Positions 877-6,177 of a stretch of DNA of 6,249 nucleotides are shown here, in pieces; position 1 is the first letter of the stretch, and every line of letters starts with the position of its first letter. Position numbers and translations under genes: made by a program. Origin of the DNA: a virus (Duplodnaviria; Heunggongvirae; Uroviricota; Caudoviricetes); IMG/VR virus record IMGVR_UViG_2675903336_000006. One strand, 5' to 3'. The notes beneath the pieces are model-generated. The model was not told where the DNA came from. It searched no databases and saw only the letters and a program-made list of their open reading frames with translations.

Positions 877-905
877 TTTGCGGGAAAAGGAGAGTTAAGT
901 AGAAT
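877..905 (+). promoter_or_regulatory. Candidate sigma70 promoter of the hok transcript (-35 TTGCGG 878-883, -10 TAGAAT 900-905)
   Basis: TAGAAT -10 with 16-nt spacer; predicted +1 (about 910-912) places GGGUGCUUGAGGCU at the mRNA 5' end, resembling the conserved 5' leader of hok mRNAs as I recall it. Confidence 0.35.
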
Positions 906-1081
906 TGCAGCGGGTGCTTGAGGCTATCTGTCTCAGGCATGAACACCAAAAGGCAGATAGAGAAAAGCCCCAGTTAACATTACGCGTCCGGCAAGACGCT
1001 TAACATTAATCTGAGGCTCAATCTATGAACGGCAAATCTAGGTTAGCCTCTTACGTGCCGAAAGGCAAGGAGAAGCAGGCT

Positions 1082-1237
1082 ATGAAGCAGCAAAAGGCGA
1101 TGTTAATCGCCCTGATCGTCATCTGTTTAACCGTCATAGTGACGGCACTGGTAACGAGGAAAGACCTCTGCGAGGTACGAATTCGAACCGGCCAGACGGA
1201 GGTCGCTGTCTTCACAGCTTACGAACCTGAGGAGTAA
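1082..1237 (+). CDS. hokD: Hok/Gef-family type I toxin (small membrane-damaging peptide), 51 aa; an in-frame upstream ATG at 1025 gives a 70-codon mok-like frame
   Basis: Translation MKQQKAMLIALIVICLTVIVTALVTRKDLCEVRIRTGQTEVAVFTAYEPEE: N-terminal TM helix plus the RKDLCEV...TEVAVFTAYE core of Hok/Gef peptides; matches my memory of E. coli HokD (RelF). Flanked by leader and terminator structures typical of hok loci. Confidence 0.8.
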   Translation: MKQQKAMLIALIVICLTVIVTALVTRKDLCEVRIRTGQTEVAVFTAYEPEE

Positions 1238-1307
1238 GAGACCAGGCGGGGGAGAAATCCCTCGCCACCTCTGATGGGTCAGGCATCCTCAATGCACCCA
1301 CACTTAA

Positions 1308-1332
1308 CCCGCTTCGGCGGGTTTTTGTTTTT
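1308..1332 (+). terminator. Rho-independent terminator ending the hok transcript
   Basis: CCCGC(1308-1312)-TTCG-GCGGG(1317-1321) stem-loop followed by TTTTTGTTTTT. Confidence 0.6.
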
Positions 1333-1345
1333 ATTTTCAACGCGT

Positions 1346-4551: not shown

Positions 4552-4626
4552 CATCTGCTCATGCGTTGGGTTCACAAGCAAACCTCAGGCCCACTGCTTT
4601 GCGCAAAAGCAGAATGAGCCTATCAG

Positions 4627-4891
4627 NNNNNNNNNNNNNNNNNNNNNNNNNNNNNNNNNNNNNNNNNNNNNNNNNNNNNNNNNNNNNNNNNNNNNNNNNN
4701 NNNNNNNNNNNNNNNNNNNNNNNNNNNNNNNNNNNNNNNNNNNNNNNNNNNNNNNNNNNNNNNNNNNNNNNNNNNNNNNNNNNNNNNNNNNNNNNNNNNN
4801 NNNNNNNNNNNNNNNNNNNNNNNNNNNNNNNNNNNNNNNNNNNNNNNNNNNNNNNNNNNNNNNNNNNNNNNNNNNNNNNNNNNNNNNNNNN
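4627..4891. other. Run of 265 N (masked or unsequenced gap)
   Basis: Direct observation; all ORFs crossing it in the track are artefacts of translating N as X. Confidence 0.99.
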
Positions 4892-4892
4892 A

Positions 4893-5420
4893 AAACAGAT
4901 TGCAGATGCCACAGGAAAGAAAAACATGGTGTCGCACTGGTTCAGTGCCGGTCAGTGGCAGTTGCCGAATGAAAGCGATTATCTGAAATTACAGGCGCTG
5001 TTTGCCCGGGTGGCAGAAGAGAAGCATCGGCGTGGTGAACTGGAAAAGCTCCACCACCAGCTGGTGGATACGTATACCTCACTGAACCGGCAGTATGCGG
5101 AGCTGCTGAGTGAATATAAACATCTGCGGCGGTATTTTGGCGTGACGGTGCAGGTGCCGTATACCGATGTGTGGACGCATAAACCGGTGCAGTTCTATCC
5201 CGGGAAACATCCGTGCGAAAAACCGGCAGAAATGCTGCAGCAGATAATCAGCGCTAGCAGTCGTCCGGGTGACCTGATTGCAGATTTTTTCATGGGGTTG
5301 GGTTCGACAGTGAAAGCGGCACTGGCGCTCGGGCGTCGTGCAATTGGCGTTGAGCTGGAGACTGAACGTTTTGAGCAGACGGTTCGGGAAGTACAGGATT
5401 TAGTCAGCCAGAACGGATGA
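4893..5420 (+). CDS. Beta-class N6-adenine/N4-cytosine DNA methyltransferase, C-terminal portion (5' end lost in the N gap; internal ATG 4926 with SD AGGA 4913-4916 is an alternative start)
   Basis: HPCEKPAEMLQQIISASSRPGDLIADFFMGLGSTVKAALALGRRAIGVELE matches the HPxxKP...D-FxGSGTT...GR-xIGIE C-terminal signature of N6_N4 MTases (CcrM-like), from memory. The catalytic DPPY motif is not in the visible part. Confidence 0.7.
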   Translation, partial: KQIADATGKKNMVSHWFSAGQWQLPNESDYLKLQALFARVAEEKHRRGELEKLHHQLVDTYTSLNRQYAELLSEYKHLRRYFGVTVQVPYTDVWTHKPVQFYPGKHPCEKPAEMLQQIISASSRPGDLIADFFMGLGSTVKAALALGRRAIGVELETERFEQTVREVQDLVSQNG

Positions 5421-5460: not shown

Positions 5461-5536
5461 GGCCCTTTAGCTCAGTGGTGAGAGCGAGCGACTCATAATC
5501 GCCAGGTCGCTGGTTCAAATCCAGCAAGGGCCACCA
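5461..5536 (+). tRNA. tRNA with CAU anticodon, most like tRNA-Ile2 (lysidine-modified; ileX/ileZ-like)
   Basis: 76 nt folds as cloverleaf: acceptor GGCCCTT/AAGGGCC, D-stem GCTC/GAGC, anticodon loop CTCATAA, T-arm GCTGG-TTCAAAT-CCAGC, discriminator A, encoded CCA; overall close to E. coli ileX as I recall it. Confidence 0.85.
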
Positions 5537-5543
5537 TCACATA

Positions 5544-5577
5544 CCGCCATTAGCTCATCAGGAAAGAGCGCCAGCCT
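5544..5577 (+). tRNA. Probable 5' part of a second tRNA, cut by the N gap
   Basis: 7 nt after the first tRNA: TA-GCTC-(D-loop)-GAGC-G-CCAGC fits positions 8-31 of a tRNA; rest masked, so identity cannot be determined. Confidence 0.3.
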
Positions 5578-5845
5578 NNNNNNNNNNNNNNNNNNNNNNN
5601 NNNNNNNNNNNNNNNNNNNNNNNNNNNNNNNNNNNNNNNNNNNNNNNNNNNNNNNNNNNNNNNNNNNNNNNNNNNNNNNNNNNNNNNNNNNNNNNNNNNN
5701 NNNNNNNNNNNNNNNNNNNNNNNNNNNNNNNNNNNNNNNNNNNNNNNNNNNNNNNNNNNNNNNNNNNNNNNNNNNNNNNNNNNNNNNNNNNNNNNNNNNN
5801 NNNNNNNNNNNNNNNNNNNNNNNNNNNNNNNNNNNNNNNNNNNNN
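5578..5845. other. Run of 268 N (masked or unsequenced gap)
   Basis: Direct observation. Confidence 0.99.
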
Positions 5846-5970
5846 GAATCCCCCTGTGCGGAGGGGCAATCAGCGAGTAGGTATATGGGATAATCGCGGA
5901 TTCAGGTGCTGGTACTGAATTCACCGGGAGGCACCCGGCATCATGCAATGGCACATAGCGCCACTCTCCA

Positions 5971-5994
5971 GCCCTCTCCGGAGGGGCTTTTCTG
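5971..5994 (+). terminator. Possible rho-independent terminator
   Basis: GC-rich imperfect hairpin GCCCTC-TCCG-GAGGGGC (one bulged G) followed by TTTTCTG; T-run on + strand only. Confidence 0.3.
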
Positions 5995-6177
5995 TGCCGG
6001 ATACATCACAGTTTCTGGAACCTTAGGTACTACAGTATCAGTCAGGGTGCTATATTTTCAGATGTGATGAAAGCCTGTCAGCAGGCAGGGCGTATCGGAA
6101 ATGACCCAGTAGAGAAAACGTTGACTCAGATACCGGTGCTGAGTTACCGGGAAACCGGCATCACATGACCGCTATCC

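Follow-up and report, generated by a model that had tools for sequence, protein, structure and literature searches.

The RNA switch of the hok loci has been known from plasmid R1 for decades, and the toxicity of HokD (RelF) is established. Here we analyze a locus of this type lying at positions 877 to 1331 of a 6,249-nucleotide (nt) stretch of viral DNA (Caudoviricetes; IMG/VR record IMGVR_UViG_2675903336_000006), which we call the window; features are on its plus strand unless the minus strand is named. The R1 locus, hok/sok (parB), to which flm of F is joined here, is plasmid-borne and has demonstrated post-segregational killing. In the R1 model, the nascent mRNA folds into a metastable 5' hairpin. 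The full-length RNA is then closed by pairing between its ends, the translational activator (tac) with the fold-back inhibition element (fbi), and the Shine-Dalgarno (SD) sequence of the upstream reading frame mok is held by an element called ucb. Trimming of the 3' end as far as a protective hairpin leads to the tac/ucb and SD/dcb stems, and with them to translation of mok and binding of the antisense RNA Sok (PMC9841398). The protective hairpin stabilizes the truncated mRNA and its disruption destabilizes it; moreover, it is the translation of mok, not the mok product, that was concluded to matter (PMC9841398).

The best-annotated relative of the window locus is hokW-sokW, with its mokW frame, from the Stx2 phages 933W and Sakai prophage 5 (Sp5), at 92.8% nucleotide identity. 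For that system the toxicity of HokW, the antitoxin activity of sokW, the dependence of this activity on the sokW −10 element, and a partial dependence on RNase III and Hfq were all shown experimentally. Indeed, antitoxin activity was lost when the −10 was mutated (TAGGTTA to CCGGCTC as read on the plus strand, primer YO-421) and returned when Sok was provided in trans (PMC8621323). The hokC (gef)/sokC locus is less similar, at about 74% nucleotide identity; it belongs to the E. coli chromosome rather than to a prophage and is flanked by IS186 in K-12. As in the window, mokC is in frame with hok and the 5' end of its Sok lies 8 nt inside mok, whereas sokC is shorter (59 nt) and has no inner hairpin.

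The closest relative of the toxin itself is hokD (relF) in the Qin cryptic prophage of K-12, with DNA 97.8% identical to window positions 1068 to 1340, including fbi and the terminator, and with the same downstream neighbor, rem. This copy is truncated upstream of 1068 and is without promoter, tac, ucb, mok start and sok gene, of which the window has the intact form. It aligns only from 1068 because relBE replaces everything upstream, which places the relBE junction at the −35 element of sok. Six other loci also align only from window position 1068 (L012, L093, L097, L138, L014, and L049; the K-12 Qin locus is L004).

Set against these systems, positions 877 to 1331 of the window very probably constitute an intact hok/mok/sok type I toxin-antitoxin locus of the hokD/hokW lineage, situated in the nin region of a lambdoid prophage and working as described for its relatives. 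The sequences of the elements are seen directly; their behavior is ascribed by analogy with R1 hok/sok and hokW-sokW. A first-pass annotation had claimed a complete hok/mok-type locus here, and this claim is supported by Pfam, Rfam, folding and homologue alignment; all of its coordinates proved correct when the sequence from 700 to 1500 was read again. The toxin gene runs from ATG 1082 to the stop codon at 1235-1237 and encodes 51 amino acids (aa). The peptide matches Pfam PF01848 (HOK_GEF) at 82.9 bits (cut-off 22; E = 1.2e-23) over profile positions 1 to 42 of 42; the NCBIfam Hok models gave matches only under their cut-offs and are uninformative for a 51-aa peptide. It is 100% identical to HokD/RelF of K-12, 92% to HokW, 82% to HokC/Gef and 43% to R1 Hok, and the difference from HokW comprises four C-terminal residues (TAYEPEE in the window, VDYESEK in HokW). 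The Hok peptide of the first-pass annotation is therefore confirmed by its open reading frame (ORF), by the Pfam match and by its identity to HokD. A conserved GGAG (1070-1073), read from the sequence 8 nt before the ATG, would serve as the hok SD.

The full-length hok (mok-hok) mRNA is predicted to extend from 912 to 1331, about 415 to 420 nt. Its 5' end is set by the start of the match to Rfam RF01794 and by the invariant GGGUGCUU, and its 3' end by the intrinsic terminator at 1306-1331, in which a 7-bp stem with five G-C pairs (1306-1323) is followed by a T run. The leader (912-1087) scores 112.4 bits against RF01794 (gathering score 59; E = 9e-26) and covers model positions 1 to 157 of 157. 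The predicted promoter occupies 877-905, with a −35-like TTTGCG/TTGCGG (877-883) and a −10 element, TAGAAT (900-905), 6 nt before the 5' end of the mRNA. The −10, as TAGAAT or TATAAT, stands at a fixed distance from GGGTGC in nearly all homologues, and the whole promoter stretch is that of 933W except for one base after the −10.

The putative tac, GGGTGCTTGAGG (912-923), can form 12 bp with CCTCAATGCACCC (1287-1299), the putative fbi, with one bulged base, and 1287-1299 is the best plus-strand target of the 5' 14-mer in the whole window. The duplex between tac and the 3' untranslated region (UTR) has a predicted energy of −21.5 kcal/mol, reached by 19 of 2000 dinucleotide shuffles of the 3' UTR. 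The minimum free energy (MFE) fold of 912-1326 contains the 5'/3' pairing (z = −7.1 against shuffles), and the full-length ensemble gives 11.9 expected tac/fbi base pairs.

Conservation was assessed on a MAFFT alignment of 96 distinct full-length homologues, ranging from E. coli prophages to Kluyvera, Photorhabdus, Erwinia and R1, and the homologue counts below refer to this set unless another is named. When the full-length fold of the window was laid on the alignment, 91.3% of cells were paired, against 36 to 44% in slid controls; 38 pairs were changed on both sides (15 to 27 in the controls), and the covariation score was 0.121 (0.03 to 0.05 in the controls). The tac/fbi pairing is kept in every clade, fbi starting 45 to 56 nt after the hok stop in all of them, and per-sequence duplexes reveal compensatory changes in Photorhabdus (GGGCGCUUGAGA:UCUCAAGCGCCC), Kluyvera (GAGA:UCUC) and R1 (GGCGCUUGAGG:CUGAAGCGCC). 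For the Photorhabdus group these duplexes are better evidence than the MAFFT columns, where fbi, which has no bulge there, was shifted by one column, producing spurious unpaired cells in helix 2. Folding and the covariance comparison with hok relatives thus both bear out the first-pass reading of the 5'/3' complementarity as a fold-back of the tac/fbi kind.

A second element, just downstream of hok, was also correctly read from the sequence at first pass: a 9-bp stem with a GAAA tetraloop at 1245-1266 (GGCGGGGGA/TCCCTCGCC, one G.U). In the alignment this hairpin (helix 18) is paired in 97.6% of cells, with four pairs changing on both sides. From the analogy with R1 we infer that it is homologous to the hairpin shielding the 3' end of the processed mRNA there, and 3' trimming is predicted to stop at it.

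In the R1 model tac exchanges partners, and three alternative partners of tac can be placed in the window: 930-940 and 965-971 in addition to fbi. With the first, the nascent transcript would form its metastable 5' hairpin (914-924 with 930-940). This hairpin is the MFE structure of 912-1269, and 98.5% of its cells are paired, against 35 to 47% with the partner slid. Position 915 also covaries with each of the two positions that it can pair with, 939 and 1296: the three bases are U/A/A in 84 sequences, C/G/G in 9 and U/G/G in 2. The second partner is an invariant anti-SD box, AAGCCCC (965-971), corresponding to ucb, whose predicted partner is the mok SD region as long as the RNA is full-length, and tac once it has been processed; in the full-length MFE fold the mok SD is indeed paired with it. 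The counterpart of dcb, GCCUC at 1046-1050, would pair in nascent or processed RNA with 1013-1017, the mok SD region, as predicted by folds and by the Rfam consensus structure. The tac/ucb and SD/dcb stems form in folds of 912-1286 and of 912-1060. Every sequence element of the R1 switch model is present in the window; tac, the metastable hairpin, ucb, the mok SD, dcb, fbi, the 3' hairpin and a cis-antisense Sok are all shared (PMC9841398), and an R1-type locus (L143) falls into the same Rfam family at 88.9 bits. The R1 locus differs in having mok in the +1 frame relative to hok, where the window has it in frame, and a Sok stem without the extension of about 18 to 21 nt described below. On inspection of the predicted target loop, 1029-1036, no U-turn (YUNR) motif was seen.

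The first-pass annotation had expected an antisense Sok-like RNA on the minus strand around 940-1060 and could not place it. The RNA can now be assigned to 1033..963 of the minus strand by transfer from sokW, whose −10 mutagenesis is described above. The layout of 933W is that of the window, so that column-by-column transfer puts sokW on 963-1033 (minus strand), mokW on 1025 and hokW on 1082, base for base. The predicted Sok has 71 nt, as does sokW; its single-stranded 5' tail of 14 nt (1033-1020) is followed by a long hairpin and by UUUU, and the folding energy is −29.9 kcal/mol (z = −4.9). Its predicted promoter (1068..1040, minus strand) has the −35 element TTGCCT (1068..1063), a 17-nt spacer and the −10 element TAACCT (1045..1040), and leads to a start at 1033. 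Promoter, Sok hairpin and terminator are identical to those of sokW in Sp5/933W, and 65 of the 71 nt of the RNA are the same. The locus as predicted thus includes a cis-encoded antisense Sok with a promoter and terminator of its own, overlapping the mok start.

Two further observations concern this part of the locus. RF01794 is named "sok antitoxin", yet it is modeled in the sense of the hok mRNA leader: in every locus tested the match is on the hok strand (912-1087, plus, in the window; 902-1054, minus, in L005; likewise in L002, L006, L008 and L143), and in K-12 sokC is annotated on the strand opposite to it. The match also spans about 157 model positions, from the 5' end of the mRNA to the hok AUG, rather than a Sok of 59 to 71 nt, and annotating Sok from RF01794 therefore gives a wrong strand and a wrong extent. 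Second, a small hairpin, UGCC-GAAA-GGCA (1055-1068), lies right upstream of the hok SD and overlaps the sok −35 on the other strand. It varies among homologues, TGCC...GGCA here and GACC...GGTCA in others, and the latter variant turns the sok −35 TTGCCT into the more consensus-like TTGACC.

The upstream in-frame start proposed at first pass, ATG 1025 with GAGG at 1013-1016, is found again in the ORF listing as a 70-codon frame, 1025..1237, which is in frame with hok, adds 19 N-terminal residues and corresponds to mokW, likewise in frame. The GAGG, eight nt upstream of the ATG, is invariant in the 96 sequences and is paired with 966-970 in the full-length fold. The mok ATG is kept in 93 of the 96 homologues, 55 to 58 nt from hok (the remaining three have no ATG at that column), and the frame that it opens is variable: in frame with hok in 73, in the +1 frame in 8 (including the R1-type locus), and, in the other 12, a frame of 19 codons that terminates at the hok start. 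The +1 frame of R1 and some others results in a long overlap with hok. What is conserved appears to be the act of translating up to the hok start, not the frame of mok, which fits the published view that mok translation is what counts (PMC9841398).

Taken together with the R1 model, these elements would act as follows. A weak promoter, with its −10 at 900-905, would drive synthesis of a stable mRNA that starts at 912 and is about 415 nt long. In the nascent transcript tac would fold onto 930-940; in the finished one tac and fbi (1287-1299) would be paired and 965-971 would cover the mok SD, so that neither ribosomes nor Sok could act. Slow 3' trimming to the 1245-1266 hairpin would remove fbi. 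With fbi gone, tac would shift to 965-971 and the mok start region would be presented in a hairpin at 1013-1050. Translation of mok would then open the way to hok unless Sok intervenes: the unstable 71-nt Sok (1033..963), made from its own promoter (1068..1040), would attach across the mok AUG by means of its 5' tail of 14 nt, with RNase III contributing to the destruction of the Sok-mRNA duplex. Once Sok is no longer made, the cell would be killed or lysed by Hok, an inner-membrane peptide of 51 aa.

Candidate roles of such a device in a prophage are addiction, help with lysis and phage release, and abortive infection. By analogy with hokW-sokW, the role may be to speed host lysis and phage release after induction. 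The strongest rival to the reading given above accordingly concerns role rather than mechanism: the same RNA switch would serve the phage as a lysis helper or an abortive-infection device, triggered by the shut-off of Sok on prophage induction or superinfection, and not as post-segregational addiction. We regard this as a serious contender, if one somewhat short of an even chance. Release of Sp5 phage is approximately doubled by hokW-sokW, sokW RNA vanishes after mitomycin C in a RecA-dependent manner (PMC8621323), and R1 hok/sok lowers T4 plating (as cited in PMC8621323). The genomic setting points the same way. The locus lies between early-region ORFs and rem, DUF968, rusA and Q, and is co-oriented with the upstream early-region ORFs and with DUF968, rusA and Q; antiterminated early transcription would therefore be expected to run head-on into the sok promoter. 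However, the published effects are modest (about 2-fold), and the argument from context does not transfer from 933W, because the locus there sits in a different genomic neighborhood, near L0136-L0141.

A second rival concerns the direct repeats in the leader. The first-pass annotation had listed 9-bp repeats, TTAACATTA at 974-982 and 1000-1008, flanking a small hairpin (984-999; GCGTC-CGGCAA-GACGC) upstream of the mok start; the coordinates stand, but the repeats do not form a separate leader feature. According to the Sok fold, they form, together with the 984-999 hairpin, the upper portion of Sok's stem-loop and of its mirror in the mRNA (972-1012, both strands). The repeat is a near-palindrome, and in Sok UAAUGUUAA pairs with the other copy via two G.U, adding nine continuous base pairs to the GCGUC/GACGC hairpin on which they are stacked. 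At the same positions the hok mRNA has A.C mismatches, so the Sok hairpin would be more stable than its mRNA mirror. Only the hokD/hokW lineage, with its relatives in Kluyvera, has the block of about 18 to 21 nt that makes up this clade-specific extension; loci of the hokC-like, Photorhabdus, Erwinia and R1 groups lack it, as do some prophage copies in E. coli (L079, L092, L120).

This patchy distribution, an exact 9-nt direct repeat around a 17-nt palindromic segment, and an inverted inner hairpin in one Kluyvera locus would all suit an insertion footprint, that is, a small palindromic element that landed in the Sok stem-loop with a 9-bp target duplication and is a feature separate from the regulatory RNA. 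We consider this improbable. The self-pairing of the near-palindrome through G.U in Sok explains the repeat without transposition, and an exact 9-nt repeat is by itself not significant, since about 0.4 such pairs are expected by chance in the 464 nt of the span. The repeat is nonetheless conserved across the clade as part of a stem. Indeed, however it arose, the block has become a part of the RNA: it lengthens the hairpin of Sok without breaking register, it is retained from E. coli through Kluyvera, compensatory changes included (ACGTC/GACGT in L029; helix 5, paired in 90.7% of cells with six pairs changing on both sides), and it is identical in the functional 71-nt sokW. The repeats therefore rank low as an independent regulatory or mobile feature, belonging as they do to the conserved Sok stem. 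The Kluyvera locus just mentioned (Kluyvera genomosp. 3, L031) has an inner hairpin that is the exact reverse complement of that in the window (GCGTCTTGCCGGACGC versus GCGTCCGGCAAGACGC), an inversion that keeps the stem and flips the loop.

Several observations weigh against an intact, working locus. The tail of the predicted Sok differs from that of sokW at six of its first 10 positions, the only differences between the two RNAs. The target changes in step with the tail because both are encoded on opposite strands of the same DNA, and the differences are matched in mok codons 2 and 3 (1028-1033). A generic consensus promoter scan with a 9-of-12 threshold found neither the hok nor the sok promoter, both of which fall under that threshold; they were placed instead by homology and by the published mutagenesis. 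The tac/ucb and SD/dcb stems can be paired in 94 to 96 of the 96 sequences, and because their columns are invariant, covariation offers no test of them and neither supports nor refutes them. With the 3' end set at 1269, these stems no longer appear: the MFE fold keeps the 5' metastable hairpin, with 0.36 expected tac/ucb pairs, and the processed form is not robustly predicted. As the outcome depends on the assumed 3' end (1286 or 1269), folding alone was not used as evidence for the active conformation. Finally, inactivity is common among chromosomal hok loci: hokA, hokC and hokE of K-12 have IS elements as neighbors, and its rearranged hokD is separated from the leader by relBE. That the window likewise holds a decayed relic, like most chromosomal hok loci of laboratory E. 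coli, in which Hok is never made or Sok not needed, is nevertheless very unlikely despite these K-12 precedents and promoters that are weak by consensus, as no element is missing or interrupted, the intact ORF encodes a peptide identical to HokD, the promoter, Sok hairpin and terminator are those of the functional sokW (PMC8621323), copies 100% and 99.8% identical occur in other viral contigs (the 100% copy, of 877-1340, in IMG/VR contig L080), and the structure is under visible purifying and compensatory selection.

The surroundings are those of an early-right, nin-like lambdoid region, with a DUF968 protein, RusA, antiterminator Q, tRNA-Met and an STnc100 region, all on the plus strand. Upstream, a hydrophobic ORF of 27 codons (787-870), for which NCBIfam gave no match, stops 7 nt short of the −35-like box of hok. 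This small ORF is shared with 933W, and its start is also found upstream of hokW in Sp5, where primer YO-432 (PMC8621323) matches 787-803. Downstream, right after the hok terminator, lies a promoter-like TTGAAG-18-TAGAAT (1346-1375), followed by a rem-like ORF (1458-1739; 93 aa from ATG 1458); the hokD-rem synteny is that of K-12 Qin and E. coli GF4. Farther along, the tRNA-Met(CAT) gene occupies 5461-5536, and the STnc100 match (69.8 bits) occupies 5817-5999, partly within a masked stretch. Two runs of N, at about 4620-4900 and 5560-5850, cover a portion of a DNA methyltransferase-like ORF and the sequence that follows the tRNA-Met(CAT) gene, and could hide further tRNA genes.

Similar DNA occurs in 4933 of 5426 complete E. 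coli genomes, where the coding sequence is annotated hokD. A search of plasmid DNA found few full-length hokD-like copies, and R1-type loci matched over 47 nt only; these were retrieved by protein search instead. The locus is an ordinary member of a well-known and thoroughly described system: thousands of E. coli genomes carry its type under the annotation hokD, and experimental tests exist for hokW-sokW. Its value is of a more modest kind. The window provides a clean, fully annotated example of the intact ancestor of the truncated hokD/relF of K-12, and all RNA switches of the locus can be placed to the base, including the antisense gene that had gone unplaced at first pass.

Among 61 distinct loci of the hokD/hokW clade, leader variability peaks sharply at 1022-1031, the target of the Sok tail, at 0.82 bit per column, against at most 0.39 bit in every other 10-nt segment. 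In these loci the stretch 1017-1036 of the window takes 13 forms that differ at a median of 7 of the 20 columns, and two copies carried by a single genome (L010 and L018) do not have the same Sok target. Within these prophage copies it is the recognition tail of Sok that diversifies. This pattern suggests diversification of specificity, which may insulate paralogous Sok/hok pairs from one another. On this basis we tentatively propose that the first 10 to 14 nt or so of Sok, together with the early mok codons, form a fast-evolving "address" that insulates near-identical prophage copies into specificity groups; and, as a related reading that rests on the orientation of the locus within the early rightward operon, that induction-driven transcription collides with the sok promoter and so couples release of Hok to the lytic switch. 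Jointly the two are possible but rather doubtful. If the first is true, several hok/sok copies could coexist in a cell without cross-silencing, and the window would carry one of at least 13 addresses.

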